Positions 1 through 51,400 of a DNA stretch of 64,000 nt are shown one piece after another. The notes under the pieces were generated by a model. That model was given only the letters and a program-made list of their open reading frames with translations. It was not told the origin of the DNA and ran no database searches. Origin of the DNA: Owenia fusiformis (taxonomy: Eukaryota). The first letter of the stretch is position 1; every line of letters begins with the position of its first letter. Both the position numbers and the translations under genes were made by a program. The stretch spans positions 8,432,001 to 8,496,000 of the forward strand of contig CAIIXF020000001.1 of assembly GCA_903813345.2 (NCBI GenBank), read 5' to 3'.

Positions 1-1440
1 CTGCATGACACTTTCAATTTCTAAAATATTTACTCTGTATCCCCGGATTTTCACCTGAAAATCTCTTCGACCTTGGTAAAATATCCTCCCATCGACTATC
101 TTAGCAAAATCTCCCACTCTGAACAGAAATTCATGGCCTTCGCTTGGTAGGATTGTATTTTTGACAAACATGTTCATTCTGCTTATTTCAGTATAGCCAG
201 TTGTTAAGCAACCTCCACTGCAGAGCACTTCCCCAGTCTCACCCTTTGGTACTGGCTGTAAGTTCTCATCAACGATATACACATTCGAATTGTATGTTGG
301 GACTCCAATAGACATAATGTTGTCATTCATTTTTTTCTCAGCATCTTCCAACGATGAAAAAATATCGATGGTAGTATCACCCGCTGTCTCCGTGGAGCCA
401 TAACCGTTAATGAGGGTGTGCCCATCAGAGAAATAACTGAAGAAATCTCGAACGAGAACAGTTGATACAACCTCACCTCCGAGGATGATAAATTTGAGAT
501 GGGACAGGCGATTTTTGATTGGATGCATATTGAGACAGACCAACATATTTCGCAAAAGGACCGGAACACAGGCTAGTCTAGTGATGTTATATTGCTCAAT
601 TGCTTTGATCAACATCTCGGGATCTTGTTTCATTGCCCTTGGCAAAATAATCAAGGGTCGTCCCTTCAGTAACCATGTGTACATTTCCCTAATTGAATCC
701 ACAAACAACAAGTCTAACAAGGCACATCCAGTCTCATCTTGTTTGAATGGGGTTTTATCCCAGTAGTAATTGATTATGTTCAGCTGACTGGCATGGGTCA
801 GCTTCACTCCTTTAGGGGTGCCGGTGCTTCCCGAGGTGAACAGTGTGCAAATCAGTGGATTTTCCCCCGTAAGACCACTCTTCATCAGGGCAAAATCAGC
901 ATCAGTCAAGTTGGTATCTTCAACAGTTGTACAAGAGTCAGCTTCAATTTCATCAAGTATCGAGTCTATGTTTAACACAGGGACTGCTTGGATGGTCGGA
1001 TTGTTAGCATTAGATCCACATGCAAATATGCAAATCGGTTTGCATTCATCCATTATGTACTGCAAACGTTTTGGAGGAAAGACAGAACTCATAGGGGCAT
1101 ATGCACTTCCAAGTTTCAGTATGCTCATCAAAGCGATCACTCGTCTTGCACTGGGTTCCATAAACACGGATATTGTTTTGTCGGGGGAATTCAATGCATC
1201 TATACCGTTATCCACCATTCGTTTCAGTACAATTCGAGCAACCATATTTGCCCTTTTGTTGAGCCGTCCAAAGGTCAGAGTTTCCTCCCCAAATTGGACA
1301 GCCATTTGATTTTCAATTGGTTCCATTCCATTTGATGTATCAATTGTGCCTTTAACAGTGTTTTCAAATACTTTATGAATGAAGTCACCGCCGTTATCAT
1401 TCTCCTCTCCCCTAAGAATACTAAGTGGTCGTTCAGACAT
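1..1440 (-). CDS. ebony: Ebony-like NRPS paralog 1, N-terminal 480 codons (adenylation domain); continues beyond the left edge
   Basis: ATG at 1440 directly follows a splice acceptor (tttgcag|ATG). Colinear with 17017-18456 at constant offset 17016. Motifs LFTSGSTGTPKGV, FVDSIREMY, NGYGSTETAGD, FRVGDF, GRRDFQVKIRGYRV. No stop-terminated ORF is reported in this frame, consistent with the frame being open to the edge. Confidence 0.88.
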   Translation of the reverse strand, partial: MSERPLSILRGEENDNGGDFIHKVFENTVKGTIDTSNGMEPIENQMAVQFGEETLTFGRLNKRANMVARIVLKRMVDNGIDALNSPDKTISVFMEPSARRVIALMSILKLGSAYAPMSSVFPPKRLQYIMDECKPICIFACGSNANNPTIQAVPVLNIDSILDEIEADSCTTVEDTNLTDADFALMKSGLTGENPLICTLFTSGSTGTPKGVKLTHASQLNIINYYWDKTPFKQDETGCALLDLLFVDSIREMYTWLLKGRPLIILPRAMKQDPEMLIKAIEQYNITRLACVPVLLRNMLVCLNMHPIKNRLSHLKFIILGGEVVSTVLVRDFFSYFSDGHTLINGYGSTETAGDTTIDIFSSLEDAEKKMNDNIMSIGVPTYNSNVYIVDENLQPVPKGETGEVLCSGGCLTTGYTEISRMNMFVKNTILPSEGHEFLFRVGDFAKIVDGRIFYQGRRDFQVKIRGYRVNILEIESVMQ

Positions 1441-1923: not shown

Positions 1924-3230
1924 TCAAGTAATAATTTAATACAATTCAAGTACAAGCTTCATTAAATACAAGTAGTTCTTTCATATAGATATATGTACTA
2001 TGTATATAAATCATTTTTAAATAGTAATAATAACAATTATTACATGATCTTACTGACTCCATTCACACCCATTCATTACATTCGTGCATGCATTCATTCA
2101 CCCACTATTCATACATTGACTATGACACAAATTTGTAAAATAAGAATTTATTTGTGTATTCATAAAAGTCTATATAAAGCATGTATGTCTACACCCTTTT
2201 GATCAAGCAGCTTAACACTGTTCAAATATATTCTCAGATAATTGGAAAATTTGAAAAAGTAAGGTAATTCTTTTTCTAAAAAAGATTTGTGTATGACATA
2301 TTTCATAATTAATATGCACAGATTTAGTTCTGCACCTTTTTCTATATTCCCGATAATACCTAATAAAATATCATTTTCAGTTAGATTTAATTCTTTATTT
2401 AGTTTTAGTTTCCACCATTCAATAAATTGCTTCCATATATCTTTTGTTATTCTACACTTTACCAGCATGTGCTCCATGGTATGAGTATCATCACACCATG
2501 GACATTTGTCTGTCTGTGAAATGTTCATCATTTTTAATTTACGGTTGCACACTAGTGTATTCGTAAGTATTTTGTACTGAAAGCTCCATATTTTAGTTTC
2601 ATATGTAACCTTTTTTGCAAGTGTATAATAGTATTTCATGTCATTTTCATTTACATTGTTATTTTGTATCCACTTTGTTAGTGATGTGGGTTTCTCGATT
2701 TCTTTTTCAAGGATTTTGTTGTAAATAGCTTTACACGACAATTGACTAGGGTTAGGAACATTTTTCTTTGAGGGGTTGTTTTTCAATATGCAATTTTTAA
2801 GAGTTTTCCATTTTTTGGGAATAGCACTGAGTATGCTGGCATACTTTAAAAAGTCTATAGGAATGTTGAATTTTCGTTCAAGTTCTGTCAGGGATAAATA
2901 GTTATTATCTCTGTCTAGGATGTCATAAATTGTTGCAATACCTGCTTGATGCCATGTTTTATAGTACACCATTTTATTATTGACTAGAATGTTTTTATTA
3001 TTCCATATAACTTCATCTTTAACATCATTCCAATTATTGACATCAAATTGTTAATATAGTGTAGAGGAGATTTTTGATATGTTTAAATTGAGAAAAACAA
3101 GATCCTCTCTTAAGAAATGAGCCTAACATTTTTTTAAAGTGCCAAGGTGGGGTCCTAATCAATAATTTTTCAAAGAGTTAATTTGATATTTTACTATCAT
3201 GGGGACTTAACTTGAAAGAAAACATTGTAT
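1520..3230. mobile_element. Degenerate fold-back/MITE (inverted arms ~1520-1670 and ~3085-3230) split by a LINE insertion
   Basis: tgttttctttcaagtgaagtacccatgat...aatatcaa is imperfectly reverse-complementary to ttgatattttactatcatggggacttaacttgaaagaaaaca. Exact termini are not resolved. Confidence 0.55.
1887..3044 (-). mobile_element. 5'-truncated L1/Tx1-like LINE (ORF2 C-terminal zf-RVT region) in the 5' intron of NRPS paralog 1
   Basis: ORF 2160-2972 contains FQYKIL...CPWC..HTMEHMLVKC. Poly(A) tail is the T-run at ~1886-1921. 13-bp TSD aaattgttaatat at 1874-1886 and 3045-3057. Confidence 0.9.
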
Positions 3231-15622: not shown

Positions 15623-18456
15623 TTAGTTCAATGGCTTTATCTGTGCTGCAACCACGAAGTCATCTTCCACCTTTGTGAAGTATGCTTTCCCCTCATATTC
15701 AAAGTTCTTGGCAGGAACTCTAACAATTGTCTTCCATCCAAACTCTAATTCAGCTAGTGCCTGCAAATAGGAAGCAAAAAAACATATCATAGATCAATTA
15801 CTACTTAGCAGTAGTAATAATTAGTAGTTGATAAGTAAGTTCACATTTCACGACCCAGCAAAGGAAGTTGACTTTCAGCTGGTTCACTCTAGACAACATA
15901 ATATCAAACGATTCAAAAGATCCCAAAGTTAGCTGTCCTTAATTTGAATGTATTACTTACTATAGTCACGGGGTGTGTGTTGACTGTTATAAGACCAGTG
16001 TATCCCAAACTCCTTGCAACCCGCATTGTTTCCACCTCGAGCATATGTATCAGTCGGATATTCTCAGCATCAGAAACGTATTTTGCAGTGGCCACCGAAC
16101 CTGACCACAACCACTTACCACCAAGCTCAGCAATTGCCTTCCTTGCTGGTTCCTCAGCTTGCATTACCAAAGCAGCTATAGGATACAGTAATTCTGGTTC
16201 AACTGCAACTTCGTAGTCGAGTTCAGAGCTGAGTAGCATTCCAGCAGCAACAACTTTACCAGTGACTCTGTTTACGACTCCCATGGAAATATTATCTTGT
16301 TCCAAAATTGGCCAGAATGTTTTCAGATGATGCATGTATTGCTCAAATGTACATCCAACATCAATGATCAGCAAATCTTTTCTAATGAAGGCATCAGAGA
16401 GAACGACCATCGCTTGGTCTTTATAGTTAGAATTTGTACAGATGTTAACCAATTCATATGTATCAGTGTCTATGACAGACGCTGGGACATTGTTGTCTTT
16501 CTTTTGCCTCAGTGTTTCAATAAGATCATGAAGGCTGGATGAGCCTAGAAAATCTGCAACCGTTAGCAAGACTCCTTTCGATTTCATATCAGCTATTGTG
16601 TACATAGCGTTTGCTGATGTCCCTCCATTCTGAAAGAAATCTTTTGTGATTATGAGTTTGGTCACCGGAATTTCGATGACCTTTGCAACAGACTCCAATA
16701 CCTTCATACCAAACTCGTCTTGTTTATATTGATGTAGTATTGTATTACTTTCTACGACTGTTTCATTGAACTTGTTTTCGTACATTGCCTTCAATGCCAT
16801 TCGGTCAATTTTCCCGGCAATCGCTTGAATAGGAAATTTATCAATTTTCTCAAAGTGCGGCATCATGTACGTTGGAAGATATTGTGAGCAGAATTCAGTA
16901 ACTGATTCAACGCTGGCTTCTTTTTCCTCGATAGCAGTGTAGAAAGCTACTAACGTTATCATACCACTGACAGAGTTATGAACTATAGTTGTGGCCTGGT
17001 CAACTCCAGGATGACTCTGCATGACACTTTCAAGTTCTGAGACATTTACTCTGTATCCCCGGATTTTCACCTGAAAATCTCTTCGACCTTGGTAGAATAT
17101 TCTCCCATCTACTATCTTTCCAAAATCTCCCACTCTGAACAGAAGTTCATGGCCTTGGCTTGGTAGGACTGTATTTTTGACAAACACGTTCATTCTGCTT
17201 GTATCAGTATAGCCAGTTGATAAGCAAACTCCACTGCATAACACTTCTCCAATCTCACCCATGGGTACTGGCTCTAACTTCTCATCAACGATATACACAT
17301 TCGTATTGTATATTGGGACTCCAATCGACATGATGTGATCATTCGTTTTTTTCTCAGCATCTTCCAACGATGAGAATATATCGATGGTAGTATCGCCCGC
17401 TGTCTCCGTGCAGCCATAACCGTTAATGAGGGTGTGTCCATCAGAGAAATAACTGAAGAAATCTCGAACGAGAACACTTGGTACAACCTCACCTCCGAGG
17501 ATGATAAATTTGAGATGGGACAAGCGGTTCTTGATGGAATGCATATTGAGACAGACCAACATATTTCGCAAAAGGACCGGAACACAGGCTAGTCTGGTGA
17601 TGTTATATTGCTCAATTGCTTTGATCAACATCTCGGGATCTTGTTTCACCGCCTGTGGTAAAATAATCAAGGGTCGTCCCTTCAGTAACCATGTGTACAT
17701 TTCCCTAATTGAATCCACAAACAACAAGTCTAACAAGGCACATCCAGTCTCATCTTGCTTGAATGGGGTTTTATCCCAGTAATAATTGACTATGTTCAGC
17801 TGACTGTCATGGGTCAGCTTCACTCCTTTTGGGGTGCCGGTGCTTCCCGAGGTGAACAGTGTGCAAATCAGTGGATTTTCCCCCGTAAGACCATCTTTCA
17901 TTGGGGCAAAATCGGCATCAGTCAAATTGGTATCTTCAACAGTTGTACAAGAGTCAGCTTCAATTTCATCAAGTATCGAGTCTATGTTAAACACAGGGAC
18001 TGCTTGGATGGTCGGATTGTTTGCATTAGATCCACATGCAAATATGCAAATCGGTTTGCCTTCATCCAATATGTACTGCAAACGTTTTGGAGGAAAGACA
18101 GAACTCATAGGGACATATGCACCTCCAAGTTTCAGTATGCTGATTAAGGCGATCACTCGTCTTGCACTGGGTTCCATAAACACGGATATTGTTTTGTCTG
18201 GAGAATTCAACACTTCTATACCGTTATCCACCATTCGTTTCAGTACAATTCGAGCAACCATATTCGCCCTTTTGTTGAGCCGTCCAAATGTCAGAGTTTC
18301 CTCCCCAAATCGAACAGCCATTTGATTTTCAATTGGTTTCATTCCATTTGATGTTTCAATTGTGCCTTTAACAGTGTTTTCAAATACTTTATGAATGAAG
18401 TCACCCGCGTTATCATTCTCCTCTCCCTTTAGGATACTAAGTTGTCGTTCAGACAT
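15623..18456 (-). CDS. ebony: Ebony-like NRPS paralog 2 (A-T-GNAT-like amine-condensing domain), 877 aa, two coding exons
   Basis: Exon 18456-15961 (832 codons; acceptor tttgcag|ATG, donor ATA|GTAAGT) plus exon 15760-15623 (ALAELEFGWK...IKPLN*). Motifs: A3 LFTSGSTGTPKGV, A4 FVDSIREMY, A5 NGYGCTE, A7 FRVGDFG, A8 GRRDFQVKIRGYRV, A10 AGKIDR, phosphopantetheine site DFFQNGGTS, C-terminal GYTGLITVNTHPVT. Size and architecture match the Ebony family. Confidence 0.92.
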
Positions 18457-19202
18457 CTGCAAACAAAAGAATGTTAAAATATTAGAATATATTGGTTAAT
18501 CCATTCACACATAGCTAGGCAAGGTGTGTCCGATTCCAGCCAATCCGTACACAGTATTTCATTATAACTGACTGCATTATATAACCAATGACGACACCCA
18601 ATGTGATTCGTTGAATGGTTGTCACGGTGACAACTTGACTCTACAGATTGAAATTGATGCTTTGCAAACTTGACCCTTGCAAAAAGTTTCATTGAAAATA
18701 TGTTCTTTCGGTAGTGATTTCGTATCTTTTAGAAAAATTGAAATGTGTGAAAATAATTTAAGCCCGAGACTTGATGCATTGTGGCTGATTCATTCCACTC
18801 AGCAGAAGTTGTTATGATTTGTAAACAACAATTAAGAGGAATGAATCAGTCCACAAGGACTAAATCCTTAAACTAATTAATCATAATATTATAAATTATT
18901 TGCATTGTTTGAACCGTTTCTACATGTGGATATGACATCCTTAATGTGAAACGCACTCATATTGTACAAAACATTTTTTGTGCGTCAAATATTCAAACCT
19001 AAAAATAAGCAACCAAAACTACACAGTACACTATTATATGGAAAAAATACATTCATGGTTTTCATATTAAGTTATATATAATATATATAATTTGTAAATG
19101 AAGAAACATGTTGGAATAATTTCTCTGCCTTTGTTTCGTTTTTTTATTATATTTAGTACGTACGCATTTTGACTTTTATACACATAATATATATATAATA
19201 TA

Positions 19203-20042
19203 CAGGGTGTTATTTTCGAAAGATTGTCAATTGGCTGAAAACCCCTAAATTAAAATGAATACATGCTTACTGCAAAGCACTTCGATCAAATAAAACTAAT
19301 TTATCTGGATTACATACATATATACAGGGTGTTCCATATGTATTTGTACATAAAATCATACATGTAGCATTGCCACCCTATCATGCTGAATATCATATTT
19401 GTTCCTTATGGAAAGTTACATAACATTGCAAGTTTCAGAATCCATGGAAGTCCCTGAAAAAGATACAAGGTATCAAAGTTAGTGGGTACAGGTCATTTCG
19501 AAGAGAATTTCTGGTCATTTTGAGGGCAATTAAAAGGGAAAATTAAGTTTCTGTATTGCACATTTTTTAGCAGTTGCCATCATGTCAGAGTTCAGTTCAC
19601 ACAAGTGTGATAGTTATTCACAAAGACATATAGATAGATTTCATGCAGTGGCTTATAGGGAGATTAGGGACCGTGGTGCGACCTCTATCACTAAAAATGG
19701 GTATGAGACAAAGTGAACAGATCACCGGATTGAGTCCAAAAATAACCAGAAGTTACCCTCGAAATGACCCCGTACCAACAAACTTTGATACCTTGTATTT
19801 TTTTAGGGACACCCATGGATTCTGAAACTTTGCAATGTTATGTAACTTTCCATAAGGAACAAAGTGATACATAACACGATAGGGTGGCAATGCTACATGT
19901 ATGAGTTTATGGGGGGTGCATACATATGAAACACCCTGTATACATCTGTATCCAGACAAATTATTTGAAGGGCTTTGCAGTTAGCATGTATTCATTTTAA
20001 TTTAGCGTTTTCCAGTCAATTGACAATCTTTCGAAAATAACA
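19203..20042. mobile_element. Tc1/mariner-type MITE (outer element; right terminus eroded)
   Basis: ta|cagggtgttattttcgaaagattgtcaattg mirrors caattgacaatctttcgaaaataaca. Arms are ~110 bp. Confidence 0.7.
19325..19938. mobile_element. Tc1/mariner-type MITE nested at the centre of the previous element
   Basis: TA|CAGGGTGTT...AACACCCTG|TA with ~190-bp imperfect inverted arms. Confidence 0.85.
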
Positions 20043-20869
20043 TGTCAGAAAAGCATCAAAATACAAGTGGCAACGCATTTTATTGGCCAAACCACAAGCA
20101 ATCCAAAATATACAAACGTTAGACTGCATCCGAAATATGAATGTAATTTTTCTCTATAATATGCTGCCGTGGAATTCGGATTTTAATATAAAGTTACTCA
20201 CCTTTACAAAGTTTATTCTCACAAATCCTAACAGTATTCAAAGTTAGCTCAAACCCAAAATACGTATGTAATTATGAAACAATCACAAAGCAATGTACAA
20301 TGTTCAAAGTAGTGGTTAACAATATCATATGTACATATTATTACGTAAGGTTAGTATATATGATAAAAGTGTACACTGCAGGTTTAGGTTCAGTGACCAG
20401 TTCATCAAGAAGGGTGAAAGAAAGTTGAACATCATAGTCATTCCAGTTTTTCTTTTTCTTTGCCAACCACACCATTTTCCTGCATTTGTTATTCTACAAT
20501 TGACTTGCAATGTCAGCCATTATAAATCTCCGAGTCTGTCGTGTCAATGACAAAACTTCCGAGGGAGGGTGTATTTCAAATTCTAAATGGGACTAAATGA
20601 TTATCTCAACCATTATCAGGTGATGTTATAAAGGTGCCAGATAATAATTGCATAAAATATTCACATATACGATAAAGTGGAAGGCGATCATTCTGATAGT
20701 AACATTTTCTGTTTGGCTAAGATTTAATTACCCTGCGTGCAGAGTCTAGTTAAACTACAATTAGACGAAGCTCTCTTTTAAGAAGTGAAGTCAAACGAAT
20801 GCAAAGGGTAAGATTTAATTTAAGCCCATCACGACTCTTTGAATTGTGAAATATATTAAGCACGAGGGT

Positions 20870-21148
20870 CAGGGGCGTAGCCAGCTTTCAGGCAGGGGGG
20901 GTGCGATCGCCGAAAATTTTTCAGTTTTCGGTCAGGGAGGGTGCGATTTTGCCATAAGCAACACAAAAAATTAAGATTTCTTTTGAATTTTACAAAAATT
21001 GATGCAACTTCCTTCAAAATTGAGCTAGAAGCTTCAAATAAAAAGCATTTTTAAAGCTCTTTTCTACCTCTATCCAATAGTCATATTTTCAAAGGTTATG
21101 GGGGGGGGTGCGATCGCACCCATCGCACCCCCCCTGGCTACGCCCATG
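20870..21148. mobile_element. hAT-like MITE (second copy at 24059-24338)
   Basis: Termini CAGGGGCGTAGCCAG / CTGGCTACGCCCATG with flanking direct repeat AGGGT. Confidence 0.75.
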
Positions 21149-21352
21149 AGGGTCTTGTATGAGACTGAATGGTAGTACCAGAGAGCCCGTGATTGAGGGC
21201 GGTAGCACATTGTACTTGCTCGCTAACTATTTTCCTTATTCAATGATTATCATTCTTACCAAAAAACCTTTTGGGCCCGGGTTTTTGGGCCTCCGTACAA
21301 TGCTAATTACATCCTTATTCCGAACACTCTCCCCTTTGCTATGGTACATGTA

Positions 21353-22002
21353 CAGGGTGTCCCGAAAGTATGACCCCCCCCCCCCCCCTAGGCAGACATA
21401 TACCAATGTTGTCATAGTATGTGTCATATATCATTTTAAAGCTTACCCAAAGTTACATTGATTCGCCAAGTATCATGGTTCAACTCTCAAATGTGAAAAA
21501 ATTACAGGCATTTCAAAATTTAGAGTTTGGTCAAAATTAAGTTCAATTTTCCACCAAATCGATAGTCAATGTGTCCTCTCGGGCCATTTTAACAGCAGCA
21601 ATTTTTTTCAGGTCGGATGGATATTGAGTTGGAAAAAGAGAATGGTAAGGGTAGAAAATCTAAGGAAACTCTTCTAAAGTGCCTCAACAGGTTTTAAGAG
21701 GGTTATAAAATTCCACACCCCTATTTGAAGGGCTTTTAAGGTCATAACTGAAAAGAATTGCTTGTGTTAACATGGTCAAGGGGGGACTCATTGACTAGTA
21801 ATGTGATGTAAAATTGAACTTTATTTTGACAAAACACCAACTTTTAAAATGACTGTAACTTTTTCCCATTTGGGAATTAAACCATGATACTTGGCAAATC
21901 AATGTAACTTTGGATAAGCTTTAAAATGATATATGACACATACTATGAGGACAGTGGAATATGTCTGCCTAGGGGGGGGGGTCATACTTTCGGGACACCC
22001 TG
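21353..22002. mobile_element. Tc1/mariner-type MITE (copies at 24543-25190 and ~54952-55556)
   Basis: TA|CAGGGTGTCCCGAAAGTATGACCCC...GGTCATACTTTCGGGACACCCTG|TA with long inverted arms. Confidence 0.88.
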
Positions 22003-22177
22003 TATATTCAAAACCTGGGACAAATAGCGTCATTCCGAGGCTTTTTGACTCTCACTTGTTCTACTATTACAAACAGGCGTCGGACAGGTGTATGGGTGTA
22101 ATGCATGCTTCAGGGCCGTCGGTAAATTTTCATAATATTCATATGAAGCCCTTGAGGTAAATAAACAACTGACAGAT

Positions 22178-22762
22178 ATGAATAAACAATCATGGCTCAC
22201 GCACATCAATGATGTACTTAAATATATTTACAATGGTACTTCACCGAACTATTTAAACTTAAAACCAAGAGAAATTAAGAAATTACTGGAAAATAGATAC
22301 ATACAATTTTGGGAAACTAAAATAAAATCAAATAATGGTAAATTGAGGTTTTATAAGATAATAAAAGCAAAATGGAACAAGGAACCCTACTTGGATTTAA
22401 TCAAAAATGAAATAGACAGAAATAACTTGACAAAGCTAAGAATTAGCGCACATAAATTAGAAATCGAAACAGGTCGTTACACAAAACCAATTACCCCTAT
22501 TGAAGAAAGAAAATGTTTAATGTGTAACAAGAAAACCGGTTCAGAATGTCATTACCTATTAGAATGCAATAAGTTAAAAGATGTTCGGTCAAGTTACATG
22601 GATAAAATAAAAAAACACTGTCAAAATTTAGAAAACATGAATAACGTGGAACATAAATTAATGTTTCTATTTAATTCAGAGGGAATAATATTAAATATAC
22701 TAGCAAAATATATATCTAATATTTTTATCGAGAGAGAAAAAAACACGAAATGCATCCAATAA
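22178..22762 (+). mobile_element. 3' fragment of a non-LTR retrotransposon ORF2 (Cys/His C-terminal region)
   Basis: LTKLRISAHKLEIETGRY...ERKCLMC...ECHYLLEC is typical of invertebrate LINE ORF2 tails. Confidence 0.8.
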
Positions 22763-22811
22763 AATCTTGCAATGATCAAGCACCCTTTGATTAGTTAATA
22801 TACTATATAGA

Positions 22812-23182
22812 TATGGTCATTTGATTATCTTTACTCAATAGAATTTTTAATTGGACTATAGCACTGTTCCACAACTGGATGACTCTAACTGCAGTTAGCT
22901 TCATTCAAGATGGTTGCCGAGATTCTTTCGTTTTCGATAAACCTCCGATTTCAGCTAAACTAAGTTGAATCTTGATTCCAAAAGTTTCGCCATGCAAATT
23001 AATAAAACTATGATTGTATTCAACCACAAATGAATGCTCTAACACCCATAATATTAGAGAATTTTAAAGAAAACGACTTCACTTAGAATGACTCTAACTG
23101 AAGTTGATGATCTACGCCATCATGACGTCATCATCAACTTCAGTTAGAGTCATTCTAAGTGAAGCCGTTTTCTTTAAAATTC
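22812..23182. repeat. 371-bp copy of 28934-29304 joining the two duplicated blocks
   Basis: Identical sequence at offset 6122. Junction microhomologies ta and attc. Confidence 0.92.
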
Positions 23183-26001
23183 ATTTTAATTTAGCGTTTT
23201 CCAGTCAATTGACAATCTTTCGAAAATAACATGTCAGAAAAGCATCAAAATACAAGTGGCAACGCATTTTATTGGCCAAACCACAAGCAATCCAAAATAT
23301 ACAAACGTTAGACTGCATCCGAAATATGAATGTAATTTTTCTCTATAATATGCTGCCGTGGAATTCGGATTTTAATATAAAGTTACTCACCTTTACAAAG
23401 TTTATTCTCACAAATCCTAACAGTATTCAAAGTTAGCTCAAACCCAAAATACGTATGTAATTATGAAACAATCACAAAGCAATGTACAATGTTCAAAGTA
23501 GTGGTTAACAATATCATATGTACATATTATTACGTAAGGTTAGTATATATGATAAAAGTGTACACTGCAGGTTTAGGTTCAGTGACCAGTTCATCAAGAA
23601 GGGTGAAAGAAAGTTGAACATCATAGTCATTCCAGTTTTTCTTTTTCTTTGCCAACCACACCATTTTCCTGCATTTGTTATTCTACAATTGACTTGCAAT
23701 GTCAGCCATTATAAATCTCCGAGTCTGTCGTGTCAATGACAAAACTTCCGAGGGAGGGTGTATTTCAAATTCTAAATGGGACTAAATGATTATCTCAACC
23801 ATTATCAGGTGATGTTATAAAGGTGCCAGATAATAATTGCATAAAATATTCACATATACGATAAAGTGGAAGGCGATCATTCTGATAGTAACATTTTCTG
23901 TTTGGCTAAGATTTAATTACCCTGCGTGCAGAGTCTAGTTAAACTACAATTAGACGAAGCTCTCTTTTAAGAAGTGAAGTCAAACGAATGCAAAGGGTAA
24001 GATTTAATTTAAGCCCATCACGACTCTTTGAATTGTGAAATATATTAAGCACGAGGGTCAGGGGCGTAGCCAGCTTTCAGGCAGGGGGGGTGCGATCGCC
24101 GAAAATTTTTCAGTTTTCGGTCAGGGAGGGTGCGATTTTGCCATAAGCAACACAAAAAATTAAGATTTCTTTTGAATTTTACAAAAATTGATGCAACTTC
24201 CTTCAAAATTGAGCTAGAAGCTTCAAATAAAAAGCATTTTTAAAGCTCTTTTCTACCTCTATCCAATAGTCATATTTTCAAAGGTTATGGGGGGGGGGTG
24301 CGATCGCACCCATCGCACCCCCCCTGGCTACGCCCATGAGGGTCTTGTATGAGACTGAATGGTAGTACCAGAGAGCCCGTGATTGAGGGCGGTAGCACAT
24401 TGTACTTGCTCGCTAACTATTTTCCTTATTCAATGATTATCATTCTTACCAAAAAACCTTTTGGGCCCGGGTTTTTGGGCCTCCGTACAATGCTAATTAC
24501 ATCCTTATTCCGAACACTCTCCCCTTTGCTATGGTACATGTACAGGGTGTCCCGAAAGTATGACCCCCCCCCCCCCTAGGCAGACATATACCAATGTTGT
24601 CATAGTATGTGTCATATATCATTTTAAAGCTTACCCAAAGTTACATTGATTCGCCAAGTATCATGGTTCAACTCTCAAATGTGAAAAAATTACAGGCATT
24701 TCAAAATTTAGAGTTTGGTCAAAATTAAGTTCAATTTTCCACCAAATCGATAGTCAATGTGTCCTCTCGGGCCATTTTAACAGCAGCAATTTTTTTCAGG
24801 TCGGATGGATATTGAGTTGGAAAAAGAGAATGGTAAGGGTAGAAAATCTAAGGAAACTCTTCTAAAGTGCCTCAACAGGTTTTAAGAGGGTTATAAAATT
24901 CCACACCCCTATTTGAAGGGCTTTTAAGGTCATAACTGAAAAGAATTGCTTGTGTTAACATGGTCAAGGGGGGACTCATTGACTAGTAATGTGATGTAAA
25001 ATTGAACTTTATTTTGACAAAACACCAACTTTTAAAATGACTGTAACTTTTTCCCATTTGGGAATTAAACCATGATACTTGGCAAATCAATGTAACTTTG
25101 GATAAGCTTTAAAATGATATATGACACATACTATGAGGACAGTGGAATATGTCTGCCTAGGGGGGGGGGTCATACTTTCGGGACACCCTGTATATTCAAA
25201 ACCTGGGACAAATAGCGTCATTCCGAGGCTTTTTGACTCTCACTTGTTCTACTATTACAAACAGGCGTCGGACAGGTGTATGGGTGTAATGCATGCTTCA
25301 GGGCCGTCGGTAAATTTTCATAATATTCATATGAAGCCCTTGAGGTAAATAAACAACTGACAGATATGAATAAACAATCATGGCTCACGCACATCAATGA
25401 TGTACTTAAATATATTTACAATGGTACTTCACCGAACTATTTAAACTTAAAACCAAGAGAAATTAAGAAATTACTGGAAAATAGATACATACAATTTTGG
25501 GAAACTAAAATAAAATCAAATAATGGTAAATTGAGGTTTTATAAGATAATAAAAGCAAAATGGAACAAGGAACCCTACTTGGATTTAATCAAAAATGAAA
25601 TAGACAGAAATAACTTGACAAAGCTAAGAATTAGCGCACATAAATTAGAAATCGAAACAGGTCGTTACACAAAACCAATTACCCCTATTGAAGAAAGAAA
25701 ATGTTTAATGTGTAACAAGAAAACCGGTTCAGAATGTCATTACCTATTAGAATGCAATAAGTTAAAAGATGTTCGGTCAAGTTACATGGATAAAATAAAA
25801 AAACACTGTCAAAATTTAGAAAACATGAATAACGTGGAACATAAATTAATGTTTCTATTTAATTCAGAGGGAATAATATTAAATATACTAGCAAAATATA
25901 TATCTAATATTTTTATCGAGAGAGAAAAAAACACGAAATGCATCCAATAAAATCTTGCAATGATCAAGCACCCTTTGATTAGTTAATATACTATATAGAT
26001 A
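23179..26001. repeat. Segmental duplication copy 2
   Basis: Mirrors 19990-22813, including identical ORFs (e.g. 25366-25950 equals 22178-22762). Confidence 0.95.
25366..25950 (+). mobile_element. Duplicate copy of the LINE ORF2 3' fragment
   Basis: Identical translation to 22178-22762. Confidence 0.8.
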
Positions 26002-26567: not shown

Positions 26568-26750
26568 ATGCAGAGGATATTTGTTTATGGTACCTTGAAA
26601 AAAGGTCAGCCTAACCATAAGTTCATCGCTGATGCTGAGAATGGAAGTTGTATTTTTATAGGAACTGGGAGAACAGTAGACAAGTGGCCACTTGTAATTG
26701 CTTCAAAGTACAACATTCCCTTTTTACTGGACAATAAAGGGCATGGGAAG
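26568..26750 (+). CDS. GGACT: Gamma-glutamylamine cyclotransferase, shared coding exon 1 (61 aa; alternative in-frame ATG at 26520)
   Basis: MQRIFVYGTLKKGQPNH...WPLVIASKYNIPFLL..GHGK carries the GGCT/AIG2-fold FVYGTL motif. Phase-0 donor AAG|GTAAAG at 26751. Confidence 0.92.
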
Positions 26751-26879: not shown

Positions 26880-28053
26880 CTATCTATTGCAAGACTTATG
26901 CCTACCACAACCGTCGCCATGTAAATCAGTGTTTTTAAGTAGCGCAAGGATCCTACCATGACCGTGGTAGTGTTATCGTGTAAGCCTGGTATAACCGTGA
27001 CAGGCTGGTATAACCGTGACAATGCTGTATTATATTGCAAGGCCTGTCATGATCCTGGAAGTGTTATCTGGAAGCCTGGCGCGACCGTAGCCTTTATTGT
27101 GGTTTATAAGCGAACGTGAATATTAATGTATAGTAGTTATTTTGATTTTGACATGATTAAGGTAGTTAAACCCCATGATCATAGTATTAAACTGTTTAAT
27201 TGTAATGACGATCACTTAAAATTATTAAGGATATTCCTGGCATTAATGTCATACATATTTACTAGTCATTGCAATACATTATAACGGTCATAGTAGGACT
27301 AAGCCTAAAGTTCTACATTACCACCCTCATACCTGGCCTTGCAATACTATATTACATTGTCACGGTCATACCAGGCTTTGCGATCCCATAATACATCGTC
27401 ATGGTCATGCCAGGTTTTGAAATACACATTCTCACGGTCACTTATAGCAATTATAAATTTCTACATTACCACTCTCATACCCGAACTTGGAATACTATAT
27501 CACATTGCCACGGCGGTCTTACCAAGCCTTGCAATACTATATTACATTGTCACGGCCATGCCAGGCCTTGCAGTACTATATTACATTGCCACGGTCATGC
27601 CAGGCTTTGCAATACACATTGTCACGGTTATAGCAGTCCTAATCGTAAATTTCTACATTTCCACTCTCATACCTGAACTTGCAATACTATATTACTATAC
27701 ATTGTCACGGCCATGCCAGGCCTTGCAGTACTATATTACATTGCCACGGTCATGCCAGGCTTTGCAATACACATTGTCACGGTTATAGCAGTCCTAATCG
27801 TAAATTTCTACATTACCACTCTCATACCTGAACTTGCAATAATATATTACATTGTCACGGCCATGCCAAGCCTTGCAGAACTATATTACATTGTCATGGT
27901 CATGGCAGGCATTGCAATATAATACAGCATTGTCGCGGTTATACCAGGCTTTCACGATAACATTACCACGGTCATGGCAGGATCCTTGCGCTACTTAAAA
28001 ACACTGAATAACATGGTGACGGTTACGCCAGGCGTTAGTCTTGCAACAGATAG
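26880..28053. mobile_element. Fold-back element in the GGACT intron with an internal ~39-bp tandem array
   Basis: ~170-bp imperfect inverted arms (gtgtttttaagtagcgcaaggatcct / aggatccttgcgctacttaaaaacac). Internal repeats of cttgcaatactatattacattgtcacggccatgccagg at ~27335-27920. Confidence 0.8.
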
Positions 28054-30037: not shown

Positions 30038-30316
30038 AGAGTCACTGGTGAAGTCTACAGTGTCAATCCACAACTAAAGGCAATTTTGGACAAACTTGAA
30101 ATCAAATATCAAGAAATAGAACTAGACGTAGAGCTAGACAATCAACAAGAAGAAACTAAATGTTCATGTTATGTGATTAACAATTTTAAACAGGAGCTGA
30201 TGGAACTTGATCTACTGGAGAGCTACATCGATGTTGAACTACGATTTGTCAGACTTCAGGATAGGGAACCCAATGACTTTTATGATTATATAACTGATGT
30301 TCGCAATTTACCTTAA
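30038..30316 (+). CDS. GGACT: GGACT terminal exon 2a (gives a 153-aa isoform)
   Basis: Acceptor cttttgattccag|AGA, phase 0. Translates RVTGEVYSVNPQLKAILDKLE...CYVINNFKQEL...LESY...*. AATAAA downstream at ~30450 and ~30571. Confidence 0.8.
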   Translation, partial: RVTGEVYSVNPQLKAILDKLEIKYQEIELDVELDNQQEETKCSCYVINNFKQELMELDLLESYIDVELRFVRLQDREPNDFYDYITDVRNLP

Positions 30317-31245: not shown

Positions 31246-31641
31246 AATGTCCTTGGAGAAATTTACGAAGTTGACTCAAAGATGGCAGCATTTCTGGATG
31301 AATTTGAGGATTGTCCAAAGTGGTACCAACGTGACCCCATTACTGTTGAACTTTTAAATGAACCTGATAACTCAGTCAGTATCAAAGATCAAGCCATGGA
31401 GGTAGAATCTGAAGTAAATAAAATAACAGGAACATCCACCCAAGAATGCATAGTGTATAAACTAAAGGCTTTCAAGGATGAACTTTCAAAGTTACCCACC
31501 ATCATGGATTATGATGGTTTCAAAGAACCTGTTTATGATAGTAAGGCAGACAATGAAATACCATATGGTATATACAACAATTATGATCCTATTGGTGATA
31601 CAGTAGATTCTGAAAAATTGAAGAAGTTGGGGATTGTATAA
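31246..31641 (+). CDS. GGACT: GGACT terminal exon 2b (gives a 192-aa isoform)
   Basis: Acceptor ttttactttacag|AAT, phase 0. NVLGEIYEVDSKMAAFLDEFEDCPKWYQR is the canonical catalytic segment. AATAAA at ~31859. Confidence 0.88.
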   Translation, partial: NVLGEIYEVDSKMAAFLDEFEDCPKWYQRDPITVELLNEPDNSVSIKDQAMEVESEVNKITGTSTQECIVYKLKAFKDELSKLPTIMDYDGFKEPVYDSKADNEIPYGIYNNYDPIGDTVDSEKLKKLGIV

Positions 31642-45400: not shown

Positions 45401-48400
45401 AAACAAAAATTCTTAAAAAATTGAACAGAAATTTTCTACCTGACTGTCTCTTCAACTATTGAATCATAATAGATTTCTTTGAAAAACGAATAATGTTATT
45501 CTAAAAAGTAATGCGTTACCATGTTTTTGATCCAAAACCATAGCAGGCAAGCTGAACCATCTCAAAACTGAGACCAACCATGATTGAGTGCTTTGGACCT
45601 AAATACTTCATTAGTAATGTAAGAATGGCAGTCTGGAAATATATAAAATATATATACAAGAATGAAAAGAGGAATTGTCTAATCCACTTGTCTGTTTGGT
45701 GAGATATGAGAACTTGTGGACAGCATCTACATTACAAAACACATCATCTTTTAACCTCAAACAACCATGATGCAACTCCATTGTATTCCACATTAAGAGA
45801 AGTCTTGCATCAGGCCCTTTCTCACTTTCTCACAAACAAACCCGAACGCAAACAAACACTAATGCTACTTTTATCTTTGTTATAGAGAATACAGAGAAAG
45901 GCTATAATATCTGACACAGTGAATCATTTTCATAACAAATTGTAAAGAAATTATATAAAGCAGCGATAATATACTGCCAATTTACCTGAGCTAAAACTGA
46001 TAAGACACCTATAACTGCAATAAATGATGCGACAGACTCCTCAGAGAAACCCATGACCTAAAATAAATAATTCAAATAATAATCCTGTCATACATACTGT
46101 ATCTGGGTTTAGAATCTTCTTTAATAGACTTCTTTACATTTTGAACATGGTTGGGGAATCTCTATGACATTTATTTCATTTGAAGGTTAGTCAAATCTTA
46201 AGAAAACTAAGTAAGATATTGTTAAACTTTCTTCAAATAACTACAATCCATGAAGTTTATCAGCAAATTAAATAAAATCAAAGACATCAAGTAACCATGG
46301 AACAAAACTTACGAGTCTTAGGTAGACGAAGAAACATGAGTATTCGCCTGCCTCAGGTAGGTAGGATAGAAACACTGTTACACAGAGCATCAGGATCAGA
46401 TGGTCCTGACCAATCTTTCGTAATGCCTACAACACAGTACATGAAAATAACATTCAGCTATCACATTAATAAGATGAGGTAAAACAACTAATAAAGTAAA
46501 CATAGCTATTTATGACATAAGTAATATAATACTAGATAACAGCAACGCCAAAGCGTAGCAAATCCCATCGAACAGCCATGGCTGGCATTTTTACAAAGTA
46601 TATAGCAAAAAATGGCAGCCATTTTTCGAAATGGCCACCTTCTATCAAAAGTGTCATAAGACAGTGTGACATGCTTATAGTATTCACATACCAAATATGA
46701 ACAAAATCACTCCACTACTTTTCGAGTTATAGTAAAATACGTTAAAATGGCGGCCATTTTGAAAAATCTTTCGTAATGCCTACAACACAGTACATGAAAA
46801 TAACATTCAGCTATCACATTAATAAGATGAGGTAAAACAACTAATAAAGTAAACATAGCTATTGATGACATAAGTAATATAATACTAGATAACAGCAACG
46901 CCAAAGCGTAGCAAATCCCATCGAACAGCCATGGCTGGCATTTTTACAAAGTATATAGCAAAAAATGGCAGCCATTTTTCGAAATGGCCACCTTCTACAA
47001 AAAGTGTCATTTGACGGTGTGCCATGCTTATAGCATTCACATACCAAATATGAACAAAATCGCTCCACTACTTTTAAAGTTACAGCAAAAATTGTAAAAT
47101 AACGAGTAAATGCCGCCATTTTTCAAGATGACTGCCATGAGCTTCTTTATTATCTACATTTCTAGCTTTATTAATGTCCTATAATTGTTTTACATTAAAA
47201 ACATATTGCTTTTACAGTTTCACATATTGCACCTAAACTACTGTAAAATCGGCACTAAAATGGCCGCCATTTTTAAATGAGTGGCCATTTTGAAAATTGG
47301 CTTTCGAGCAGGACTTCTACCCCCATAGGGTATGTGTGTACAAAATATGAACAAAATCGGACCAACAGTATTTGAGTTATTGTCCGGACGGACGGACAGA
47401 CAGATGGAGGCGTTTTCCCTATATCCAAACTTCGTTCGATGTGATAATAATATCTCTGCAGTCAGTCAGTTTAATATCTCATTGATCTGTTTTTCATGTT
47501 TGACAAAGTAATTTTACTGAACCACTTTAAATTGCCAGATAGGGCTGCCATCTATTTTAATGAATTCATAATCATATCTAAATAAATGAAACCTACATGC
47601 CATCTATTTTTGTCATATTTTACAATAACAATTAACAAATAGCTCTGTCATCTTTTTCTAAAATTCAACATCTATCTTCAAAATTGATCAACTACTGTAT
47701 CGATTCAAAACATTGATGTCCACGAAAGTATTATGTTTGGGAAATGGGTGAAAGGTATTTTTGTGACACCCTGTTCTTGCTCATCTAAGTTTTTCAATAA
47801 TTTATTGTTTCATTAAAGGTTAAAGTCAGAATGTGAATGACCAATCTAAAGAATATAACCTAGATGTAACTTACCCCGAATGGGTCTGCTTTTTCCCAGG
47901 ATATCTGAGATCCCCATGATGCAGGTCTCATTTTCTCTGGTAATGATTCAGGCACCGCAACCATTATAAATAATATGTCAAACATTGCTATAGCTGCAGC
48001 TAGGGCTACAACAAGGTTATCGCTATAAACTTTGCCTAAATAAGCACCAATTGCAGGACTTGTCACTAAGCTTGCTGCAAAAGTAGCAGACACCTGCAAA
48101 AACATAAAAACACATGTAAATTATCAAGAGAGCTTGCAACAATGATTTGGTAACTTTATTTTAAGAAGATTTCTAAAATGTATAATATAACAAGAAATAT
48201 GTGTAGTCACCCAAAGTTTATTGAATTGTAGAATTTGGCTACCGTGGCCCCCTCTAGCAAATGTACAAAGGAGAATCCAATAAGAAGTGGTTTTCATGTG
48301 ATCCCATTTACAAACTTTATCAAAAAGATCTAATGTCAAAATAAAATGATAGCCAACCAAAAGTTAACCAGTTTTAAGGCTTAGTTCCCTATAGACATGT

Positions 48401-51400
48401 GTTAAAAAATCTATAGATTAGACAATTATCTTTCATGCTTTCAAATTTCTAACTGACCAGTCCATATGCTGAGCTGCGCTCTTCTTCAGTTGTGATGTCA
48501 GCTACATATGCAAACACAACACTGAATGTTACTGCGAAGATTCCAGATATTGAGATCATAGCAAAGTACCACCTAAAAAACAAAGTTAGAAAATATTACT
48601 ATAATGTCATACATTTGCAGTATTTTAGAACAAGCCATATTTTAATTTGCATAATACATAATACAATATTTATCATAGGGGGATCTTTAAGTGTTCATAA
48701 CCAAACGGGTTACTTCTGAGCTAAGGTAAATATGCAGGAAATACAGAGTAGAAGGACAATATCATCCAATTGTGCCAGACTAGGCATATGTTACAAGAAG
48801 GTCTCTAAGTATTAATAAAATAAAACAAGAATGTAAAGATAAAGGTCAATATGGAGTTGGCAATTACTTTGAATTCGATATCAGGTTATAAGATACATGT
48901 TACAAGTCATAATATACATTTGAGCTGCAAATAATTTTCATGTTTTTATGTTGATGTAATAAAAGGGTTTATTCCCATTTCGCCACTTCCCATTTTGCCC
49001 CTTCCCATTTCGCCCCTCATTTATTCCCATTTCGCTCCTTCCCAATTGGCTCCTTTCCCATTTCGCCCCTTTCCCATTTTGCCCCTTTGCCGTTTCACCC
49101 CTTTCCCGTGTTGCCCCCTTCCCATATCGTCCCTTTAGCTTTCCCTTATCGCCCCTTCCCATGTCGCCCCTTCTCCATTTCACCCCTTCCCATTTCGCCC
49201 CTTCCCATCTCGCCCCTTCCCATTTCGCCTCACATGAACTAAGGTCAAGGTCATTCCAAGGTCAAAGGTCAGTATCTAGGTATTTTACTTTTTAATAAAT
49301 GAGGGGCGAAATGGGAAGGGGCGAAATGGAAATGAACGAGGGGCGAAATGGGAAAGGGGCCAATTGGGAAGGGGCGAAATGGGAATAAATGAGGGGCGAA
49401 ATGGGAAGGGGCCAATTGGGAAGGGGCGAAATGGGAAGGGGCGAAGGGGGAATGAGGGGCGAAATGGGAAGGGGGCATAATGGGACGGGGCCGAAATGGA
49501 AGAGGGGCGAAATGGGAAAGGGGCAATTTGGGAAAGGGGCAAAATGGGAAGGGGCGAAATGGGTAGGGGCCAAATGGGAAGGGGCCAAATGGGAATAAAT
49601 GAGGGGCGAAATGGGAAGGGGCAAAGTGGGAAGGGGCGAAATGGGAAGACACCAATAAAAGGTATTTAAAATATTCATATGCTCTTAGCTTGGAAAAGGA
49701 TCATATTTATTAAACATTTTTGAATAAACCTGACTCATATTAAATGAAACATGATTATTCTACAGCTCCTTAGAGGAAAGTAGTGAAAGGCATGTTTACT
49801 TACCATGGGCTAAACTTCATGAGTGGTATAGGGGCACAAGTGAATGTGACAGTAAGCAGGAGAAATGGCTTGCGGCCCCATACATCTGATAATGCTCCTA
49901 TTAAAGGGGCACTCAGAAATGATAAGATTCCCTGAAAATACAGAAAAATGTACTTTACATGTGCATTTAAACATTTGGACGGGATTTGGTGAAGCCATCT
50001 ATTCAACAATCTCTGTTATCGAGTCTGTCAGTTAGTCAGACATACATGTATTTGCTTCATATTATACTATATTATAGGTACCCTTTGCATACATTTGAAA
50101 AAGTCTCAAAATAAACGGGAATTTTTAATAGGTATAGAACTTCTTTGAGTATAAGCTGTTTCACAAACTACTGTTTTAATTTCAAAATGGTCACAATATT
50201 TTTGGGGGATTTCTAGTTGTTAGTGGTATATAATACCATATTCATTCGCTTAAATCTCTGGCCACAGTCCCCATCTACTTGTAAAGTTGAGGTATGTTGG
50301 GAGTCATAATGCCTTGAAGAAAAACCTTCACCTTATTGTGACTTTATTTGCATATAAAAATCAATAGTGCAAAATGACAGGTGTATGCCTATGCACTATG
50401 CAGGTACAAGTATATTAATTGGATAAGGGTGAATGTACTAAATGCATATTTTGTTTTTTAATAACTAACTGAATTATGATGGCAAAGTAAGGTCACAGAG
50501 ACTTTAGTTTTTTCATATTTTCCTTCATTGTATGTATTACCAGCATCCATAAAGCTACTCTATATAGCTAGATGTAATTTCCTCCAATTTTAACCAACAT
50601 AACCATCTATACATGAGACTGATTATAAAATAGAGGAAAATAGGAGTTAGACCCATTACATAAACAGTCAATGGGCATATTGAATTGATTCAATTAATTA
50701 ATTTTGCAATGAAATCATTAACTCATATCAGCTGAACAAACTTCCCTTATGAATTCCATCCAAAAGTTTCTTGACATTTTTGAACACATTTGACCTTAAC
50801 ACTGAAGTCACAAGGGGTATATCTCTAAAAAAAAGAAAATTGGAAAAAGTTCATATTTTGAAGGGTTCACTTTTTTTTAAAGATAGGTTCACAGACACAA
50901 GTGTTTGTATCTACAGTGCTGTTATTAGTGCCAATGTACTCCCCATGTACTACACACTATACTGTACCCTTATATCAATCATACTGTCTGTTTAATATCA
51001 AATTAAAGAATGAAAATTAATTAAAAATAAATCATCAATTTGGAGATCAAGAAAGGTTGACAGATTGCCAATTTCATTACATTATTCATATTTAAGTGTA
51101 CTACTCAAATGATGGCCTTCAACATAAGAAGCATATGTTTTAACTGTCAAGGTTTAATACTCACACCACATGAGTAGTCAAGAGCTATTGTTGCCACTAA
51201 TGAGGAGAGTTCAAGAGTCACTTTTAAGCTCTTTTATACTAAGATCATAATTCTCAAGAAAGTTTGAATTAGACCAATAGTGAAACTAAGATAAGGCTAT
51301 AAATTTAGTACATGTGTATGTTGATAAATGATAATGTGTACAGGTACTTACTTTAACACCCTGGACTAAACCATTCATCAGAAATGTGTGATTTTCAAAT

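Follow-up and report, generated by a model that had tools for sequence, protein, structure and literature searches.

The synthetase locus

We analysed a stretch of 64,000 nucleotides of the annelid Owenia fusiformis (contig CAIIXF020000001.1, positions 8,432,001 to 8,496,000; the window), which carries an Ebony-family synthetase gene (copy 1), a tandem paralogue that runs off the window edge and, in the opposite orientation, a gene resembling GGACT (gamma-glutamylamine cyclotransferase). The window is AT-rich and gene-poor, with a G+C content of 30-42% in 2-kb windows. Positions in the text and in Table 1 count from its first letter.

Copy 1 corresponds to a minus-strand open reading frame (ORF) at 15913..18462 encoding 849 amino acids (translation P0001), which is 100% identical to P0004, an 877-amino-acid Owenia fusiformis 'unnamed protein product'. 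Translation of P0004 begins with the ATG at 18456 and departs from the ORF past ...HPVTI. The splice junctions are canonical (donor ATA/GTAAGT, acceptor TTTGCAG/GCA).

Along with the adenylation and carrier domains listed in Table 1, the Pfam scan returned a weak match to AMP-binding_C at P0001 residues 476-538 and no condensation domain (PF00668) in copy 1. The last 209 amino acids of the ORF match the C-terminal domain of Drosophila Ebony (PDB 6dym, E = 2.6e-9), the sole PDB match for this segment at E <= 10. Core motifs are legible throughout the translation: SGSTGTPKG, NGYGCTE, FRVGD, and GRRDFQVKIRGYRV correspond to motifs A3, A5, A7, and A8 of the nonribosomal peptide synthetase (NRPS) literature, GKIDR holds the lysine of A10, and GGTS holds the serine of the carrier domain. 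Because the Pfam adenylation and carrier domains, the 6dym match, and a clade shared with insect Ebony all agree, copy 1 is, as judged from its sequence, a single-module Ebony-family synthetase consisting of adenylation, carrier, and Ebony-type C-terminal domains, and this family assignment is secure. Its tandem copy is assigned to the same family and type. The three-part architecture is the same as in arthropod Ebony. By this layout, the adenylation domain would activate a carboxylic acid as acyl-AMP, the carrier domain would take the activated acid as a thioester, and the C-terminal domain would pass the acyl group to an amine. Copy 1 also resembles the flatworm NRPSs (Schistosoma mansoni Sm-NRPS and planarian nrps), spiralian single-module Ebony relatives that join an acid to a monoamine; the flatworm enzymes use beta-alanine, giving beta-alanyl-tryptamine as the product (PMC11214079).

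A second TTTGCAG, a good splice acceptor, lies directly before the copy 1 ATG (18457-18463, minus strand), which points to a non-coding exon further upstream or to a spliced leader. In an ungapped comparison of the two synthetase copies, similarity stops at the ATG.

Table 1. Coordinates of the synthetase gene, its specificity code, and other features of the window
Feature	Position	Strand	Details
Copy 1, whole gene	15623-18456	minus	one long exon, 197-base intron, short 3' exon
Copy 1, exon 1	15958..18456	minus	ends ...ACT ATA, then donor GTAAGT
Copy 1, intron	15761..15957	minus	197 bases, GTAAGT...TTTGCAG
Copy 1, exon 2	15623..15760	minus	last 45 residues (ALAELEFGW...KPLN) and stop, equal to the P0004 C-terminus
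Adenylation domain	16786..18327	minus	P0001 residues 46-559; Pfam AMP-binding 46-418, E 2e-62
Carrier (PP-binding) domain	16513..16704	minus	residues 587-650; Pfam 21.8 bits against a cut-off of 20.8
Carrier serine of GGTS	16615-16617	minus	residue Ser616
Ebony-type amine-selecting C-terminal domain, exon-1 part	15916..16542	minus	PDB 6dym match
Code stretch, F234 to D331	17392..17721	minus	copy 1
V235 codon	17716-17718	minus	copy 1
D236 codon	17713-17715	minus	copy 1
R239 codon	17704-17706	minus	copy 1
A278 codon	17587-17589	minus	copy 1
I299 codon	17500-17502	minus	copy 1
G301 codon	17494-17496	minus	copy 1
G322 codon	17419-17421	minus	copy 1
G330 codon	17395-17397	minus	copy 1
D331 codon	17392-17394	minus	copy 1
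Lys517 equivalent	16810..16812	minus	copy 1; GKIDR, motif A10
Tandem paralogue	1..1440	minus	first 480 codons, runs off the window
GGACT-like exon 1	26568..26750	plus	MQRIFVYGTLKKG...GHGK, donor GTAAAG; human/mouse GGACT residues 2-62, E 2.2e-16
GGACT-like 3' exon a	30038..30313	plus	RVTGEVYSV...; canonical acceptor, same phase as b, more diverged
GGACT-like 3' exon b	31246..31641	plus	NVLGEIYEV...EFEDCPKWYQR...; GGACT residues 63-138, E 3e-8
Tandem duplication	19990-26000		period about 3.19 kb, 100% identical; between the synthetase and the GGACT-like gene
zf-RVT (reverse-transcriptase zinc-binding) ORF	2163-3050	minus	E 4.4e-6; retroelement remnant between the two synthetase copies
MFS_1 hint	49803-50015	minus	E 1.5e-4, below the Pfam cut-off; best PDB match MFSD10, E 0.03
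SNAPC1 hint	46509-46706	minus	E 0.007, below the Pfam cut-off

The specificity code of copy 1

The ten code residues line the substrate side chain in adenylation domains, with position 239 at the pocket floor, a picture attributed to Conti 1997 and Stachelhaus 1999. The arrangement of the ten residues around the side chain is restated in PMC12283262. In copy 1 they are V235, D236, R239, A278, I299, G301, G322, G330, D331, and K517 (VDRAIGGGDK). This code was read twice with the same result, from a MAFFT alignment of 38 rows and from an independent hidden Markov model (HMM) alignment of 1298 adenylation domains. Both alignments bear out all ten residues of the code that a first-pass annotation of the window had proposed, and the range given there, 17392-17721, spans exactly the codons from F234 to D331.

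The GrsA numbering was transferred by way of motif anchors and HMMER alignments to LgrA and 8xjz_C, which is a small weakness. Both HMMER alignments are ungapped across the A4 motif 'FDxS' and assign V to 235, D to 236, and R to 239, placing the arginine within the pocket code as had been suggested. The 8xjz_C alignment is also ungapped across the A5 motif 'NxYGPTE' (G at 322, G at 330, D at 331); the LgrA module-2 alignment contains a 6-residue gap after the A5 'TE' and backs position 322 only. The beta-amino-acid signature, comprising a non-Asp residue at 235 (here V), D236, D331, and K517, is present. The lining of the beta-alanine pocket seen in arthropod orthologues (a small residue at 239, V/T278, S/N301, and a large hydrophobic residue at 322) is not found in copy 1.

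Comparison with the Ebony family

Our family sample consists of 36 animal Ebony-family proteins, 35 of them rows not derived from the window, with named sandfly and beetle orthologues standing in for the Drosophila melanogaster Ebony adenylation domain. All six arthropod Ebony orthologues (five insects and one ostracod) read VDSVVSFGDK, which rules out, for this group, that beta-alanine homologues share the code of copy 1. The insect rows are annotated as 'ebony' (Phlebotomus, Holotrichia), 'hypothetical protein' (Ignelater), or 'uncharacterized protein' (Anoplophora), or are unnamed (P0146). Copy 1 and the arthropod orthologues have V235, D236, G330, D331, and K517 in common, in agreement with the earlier view that an Ebony-type beta-amino signature is retained, but differ at 239, 278, 299, 301, and 322. 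The annotation had given the insect residues V278, S301, and F322 correctly, with the changes V278 to A, S301 to G, and F322 to G against 6/6 arthropod rows. The alanine it gave for position 239 is not seen in the six rows, which all have Ser; the fly-clade row P0160 has Ala, and the residue is small either way. P0160 itself, an unnamed 711-amino-acid protein on the fly branch, has a divergent code, ADAVVSFCEK (A235, C330, E331).

R239, A278, G301, and G322 each occur in 0/35 of the other Ebony-family rows. Among 66 other adenylation domains of the [VIL]D...D type, R or K at 239 was found in none, A278 in one, G301 in two, and G322 in none. These domains include many bacterial ones reading VDWV[IV]SLADK, which we take to be the bacterial beta-alanine code. 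I299 differs from the arthropod V299 and is found in other family members, and hence lies outside the four unique changes. None of the other adenylation domains in the set of 1298 has the complete code of copy 1. The observation of four changes in the pocket is thus confirmed and is not a chance pattern.

Spiralian relatives fall into two pocket types. The larger, well-supported clade of 21 rows (P0006, P0008, P0124-P0136, P0138, P0140, and P0142-P0145, including Lineus 'ebony-like', Capitella, and Owenia P0133) combines N301 with A330, in the pattern VD[VI][VTI]xNxADK, and a smaller group has the arthropod-like S301 and G330. Both types are present in Owenia, which has at least six Ebony-like genes in total. 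At least four of these lie beyond the tandem pair, among them P0005 with the near-canonical code VDSVISFGDK.

Wider searches gave no further carrier of this pocket. No protein above 34% identity, beyond the window's own, was present among 7940 scored candidates from a 5.8-billion-protein collection, and for this reason the code of copy 1 is regarded, on present sequence sampling, as a novelty of the Owenia lineage. A profile built from six sequences, run against a maximum of 8000 word-sharing candidates, found no new Ebony-family member among the matches listed, which were mostly bacterial NRPSs, and it missed P0137, P0139, and P0141 as well. An exhaustive search of representatives with P0001 returned its own protein and 149 very large multi-module synthetases. 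The summed scores of such proteins drown out relatives with a single module, and so this search carries no family information. An animal NRPS survey (PMC10531068) places annelid members in the Ebony clade without discussing codes, and the words 'Stachelhaus' and 'Owenia' are absent from its main text. The bursatellin (PMC11869996) and kasichelin (PMC12305651) papers have no bearing on pockets of the Ebony type.

Phylogeny and tempo of change

A quick IQ-TREE analysis of the 36 animal rows with four bacterial NRPS outgroup rows recovered the animal proteins as one clade against the outgroups, with P0001 and insect Ebony inside it (SH-like approximate likelihood ratio test, SH-aLRT, 100). P0001 is sister to P0137, Owenia P0139, and P0141 (SH-aLRT 97). 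These sisters carry the Ebony-like codes VDTLISFGDK, VDTVVSLGDK, and VDTVVSYGDK, respectively, and R239, A278, G301, and G322 are therefore derived states on this tree. Pockets across the surrounding spiralian clade, from within which both copies emerged, are similarly Ebony-like (T/S239, V/L278, S301, F/L/Y322).

The end branch of P0001 is long, at 1.4 changes per column compared to 0.66-0.87 in P0137, P0139, and P0141; among all relatives, P0137 comes closest to it, at 39% identity. Because the branch is long, four changes in ten positions are unsurprising by number alone; their placement on otherwise constrained positions is unusual.

Integrity and transcription of the tandem copies

The paralogue and copy 1 share 93.9% nucleotide identity and 436/480 residues. 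The annotation had held that both paralogues share the code, and this stands for nine residues, which are identical in the paralogue (codons at 376-702); the tenth, K517, lies beyond the window edge there. Eight of the nine codons are also identical, the exception being G330, which is GGC in copy 1 and GGT in the paralogue. Over the 480 codons, synonymous divergence (dS) is 0.143 and nonsynonymous divergence (dN) is 0.043, giving a dN/dS of 0.30. Both ORFs are intact. Of the 98 family columns conserved at >=90%, P0001 keeps 83 and has 14 changed, mostly conservatively (Y to F, W to Y, L to I/V/M), compared to 3-6 changed in P0137, P0139, and P0141.

Transcription was assessed from three RNA-seq runs of one study, with about 6-12% of each run read. 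Reads over copy 1 occur solely in the 'first mate on +' orientation, which in most stranded libraries denotes minus-strand RNA. The intron bin 15768-15884 has a depth of 0 in 3/3 runs, and the exon 2 bin is covered. A further run, X1, was rejected as RNA, as it has coverage across the intron and is probably DNA. Paralogue-specific bases occur in the reads at 17782 and 17807 (3/3, X14) and at 18022 and 18289 (2/2, X15), and both copies therefore appear to be transcribed; at 18142-18148, 0/2 reads carry the paralogue bases. At the listed differences between reads and contig (17572-18407), 12/18 equal the paralogue base, so reads from the second copy map to copy 1 even at 97% likeness. This calls for caution in any estimate of expression.

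Given the intact ORFs and core motifs, the dN/dS of 0.30, the 83/98 conserved columns, and the stranded RNA reads, both copies look functional, which would suit a maintained, fast-evolving function and argues against decay.

A GGACT-like gene and other features of the window

We ran a Pfam scan over the other ORFs of the window, covering 26 ORFs of >=90 amino acids and 150/194 ORFs of 55-89 amino acids. The one clear result was a set of three plus-strand pieces matching PF06094 (GGACT). From their sequence, they form a gene in which a single 5' coding exon is followed by two 3' exons, either alternative or duplicated. Exons 1 and b align with chains 3jub and 2kl2 through FVYGTLKKG (residues 2-62) and EFEDCPKWYQR (63-99). 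The homologue keeps Y-G-T-L (Tyr7, Gly8, Thr9, Leu10) as well as the aligned counterparts of Glu82 and Tyr88, all of which belong to the catalytic site of mouse A2LD1 (PMC2954230). Exon a is three residues shorter than exon b around the Glu82/Tyr88 stretch. The gene starts 8.1 kb upstream of the synthetase ATG and is divergent from it (head to head). A tandem array of six copies of units of about 155 nucleotides, 60-100% alike, occupies part of its intron 1 (27305-27993).

The remaining scanned ORFs yielded retroelement fragments and two weak single-exon hints, MFS_1 and SNAPC1 (Table 1). The 3.19-kb duplication must have arisen very recently, unless it is an artefact of assembly; each of its copies contains the same 208-codon ORF (22136-22759 and 25324-25947), whose tail is rich in Cys and His and resembles that of retroelements. 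A rise in G+C at 48-50 kb may mark the start of a gene.

Proposed substrate of the re-coded pocket

From these comparisons, we infer that the best reading is a pocket re-tooled away from beta-alanine. On a fast-evolving branch, the copies gained R239, A278, G301, and G322 while keeping V235, D236, I299, G330, D331, and K517. The resulting pocket would fit beta-alanine poorly, as three wall residues, formerly bulky or polar, are now smaller and a guanidinium would stand on the floor beside two aspartates. The substrate could plausibly be larger and acidic. It should still bear an amino group, since V235, D236, D331, and K517 are kept, and this implies that the cationic group of the substrate would sit as in beta-alanine or somewhat deeper. 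The pairing of acid and base at the floor of a widened pocket could hold a dicarboxylic amino acid by its alpha-amino-acid head group.

We assign a probability of roughly 40% to the more specific reading that the substrate is an amino-dicarboxylate bound at its distal carboxyl. Such an acid would enter tail first, so that the side-chain carboxyl lies at the AMP site while R239 binds the alpha-carboxylate and D331/D236 the alpha-ammonium. Glutamate activated through the gamma-carboxyl would be the first candidate, followed by aspartate through the beta-carboxyl or beta-glutamate, and the product would be a gamma-glutamyl (or beta-aspartyl) amine.

Several characterised domains offer partial precedents. 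The bacterial code DPRHLALLAK, assigned to alpha-aminoadipate, likewise has an Arg at code position 3 (PMC12283262), and module 1 of ACVS adenylates aminoadipate at the delta-carboxyl (PMC7884236), an amino-dicarboxylate activated at its distal carboxyl as proposed for copy 1. Aminoadipate domains belong to unrelated NRPS branches, with other residues at 235/236 and without an Ebony-type C-terminal domain. The precedents, VinN included, are likenesses of mechanism, not homology. VinN takes an aspartate derivative, 3-methylaspartate, as a beta-amino acid and holds the extra carboxylate with basic residues, keeping Asp235, shortening the beta13-beta14 loop, and using K330/R331 (PMC11253843). Copy 1, unlike VinN, has V235/D236, a loop of normal family length, and its Arg at 239.

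The neighbouring gene lends indirect support to an acidic substrate and invites a speculative extension. In flies, Tan reverses Ebony. Work by Oakley et al. in 2010 reportedly found that GGACT acts on gamma-glutamyl-amines, releasing the free amine together with 5-oxoproline. The GGACT homologue could accordingly be pictured as splitting a gamma-glutamyl-amine made by copy 1 back to these products. The four substitutions would then have turned a beta-alanyl-amine synthetase into a gamma-glutamyl-amine synthetase, and the locus would support a cycle of ATP-dependent masking of monoamines as gamma-glutamyl amides followed by release of the amine and 5-oxoproline. Gamma-glutamyl conjugation has reportedly been described in an earthworm. 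It is listed among invertebrate monoamine routes (PMC8402476, citing Sloley 2004), and an Aplysia 'gamma-glutamylhistamine synthetase' appears in the reference list of PMC4472778. In the open literature searched, none of the papers listed links Ebony-type enzymes with gamma-glutamyl conjugation. By analogy, the tandem synthetases and GGACT might form a small metabolic cluster, a counterpart of Ebony/Tan in which an amine-masking synthetase sits beside an amine-releasing enzyme, but we consider this doubtful. The pairing is drawn from adjacency alone; Tan is a hydrolase of another fold. A chance GGACT neighbour within 10 kb would be unlikely if GGACT-family genes are few in this several-hundred-megabase genome.

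A number of points weigh against the proposed substrate and cycle. The three characterised family members, Ebony of Drosophila and the NRPSs of schistosome and planarian, all use beta-alanine (PMC11214079), and the beta-amino signature V235/D236/D331 is intact in copy 1. R239 could fold onto D331 or D236, refilling the space opened by G301, G322, and A278 and leaving a small pocket. The dN/dS of 0.30 and the 14 changed conserved columns also fit relaxed constraint, RNA depth over the copy 1 gene body is low (0-3 across the three runs), and no splice joints were present at the listing threshold in those runs. The adjacency of GGACT could be coincidence, and it was noticed after the hypothesis had formed, when many other neighbours would have looked meaningful too. 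GGACT is widely conserved and has a part of its own in the breakdown of gamma-glutamyl-lysine; clusters of functionally related genes are uncommon in animals; and the 8 kb separating the two genes is full of retroelement remains. A lineage-specific code cannot account for gamma-glutamyl conjugation across molluscs and annelids.

The best-surviving alternative is that copy 1 continues to make beta-alanyl-amines, or uses a comparably small omega-amino acid such as gamma-aminobutyric acid (GABA), and that the four changes are compensatory repacking, with the long Arg chain filling the room at G301/G322/A278 and pairing with D331 or D236. The substrate of the characterised enzymes and the six retained residues (V235, D236, I299, G330, D331, and K517) would agree with this, as would a long branch on which many positions are altered and no relative exceeds 39% identity. 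However, the states at 239, 301, and 322 occur in 0/35 family members and almost never in the 66 VD..D-type domains, even though these include far more distant bacterial ones. Owenia also has at least four other Ebony-like genes, with P0005 near-canonical; since these exist and two copies are kept at a dN/dS of 0.30, a redundant beta-alanine enzyme is less expected. Repacking around an unchanged substrate is possible but on the unlikely side.

The same pocket counts (0/35 and the 66 domains) would also be consistent with an acid other than an amino-dicarboxylate, such as a plain dicarboxylate (succinate or malonate), an acid carrying a sulfo or phospho group, or a beta- or gamma-amino acid of greater bulk, in which case R239 would bind any distal anion or merely reshape the cavity. 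The code matches 0/1298 adenylation domains, so no substrate can be assigned by nearest neighbour, which leaves room for such acids. Against them, D236 and D331 are both kept, which suggests that the substrate has a positively charged group; two aspartates would repel a ligand bearing anions only, and the GGACT neighbour would become a coincidence. We rate this class as quite unlikely. Finally, the pair could be duplicates in decay, their pocket degraded and no acyl substrate under selection. This would explain an end branch about twice that of the sisters, 14/98 changed columns, and low RNA depth, but is very unlikely given that the long ORFs are intact, the splice sites canonical, and the core motifs all present, with a dN/dS of 0.30 at a dS of 0.14, nine pocket residues identical across the copies, and the apparent transcription of both.

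Significance

The animal Ebony-type enzymes characterised so far all attach beta-alanine. If copy 1 is indeed a re-specified natural member, the animal NRPS family would be shown to vary its acid as well as its amine, and the four substitutions would mark a natural path for re-coding a beta-alanine domain. Were the substrate glutamate, copy 1 would be a candidate gene for gamma-glutamyl-amine formation and, with its GGACT-like neighbour, would form a pair of genes linked by function, which is rare in animal genomes. Should the cluster reading also hold, it would be the first gene assigned to gamma-glutamyl amine conjugation, an activity long described biochemically in invertebrates.

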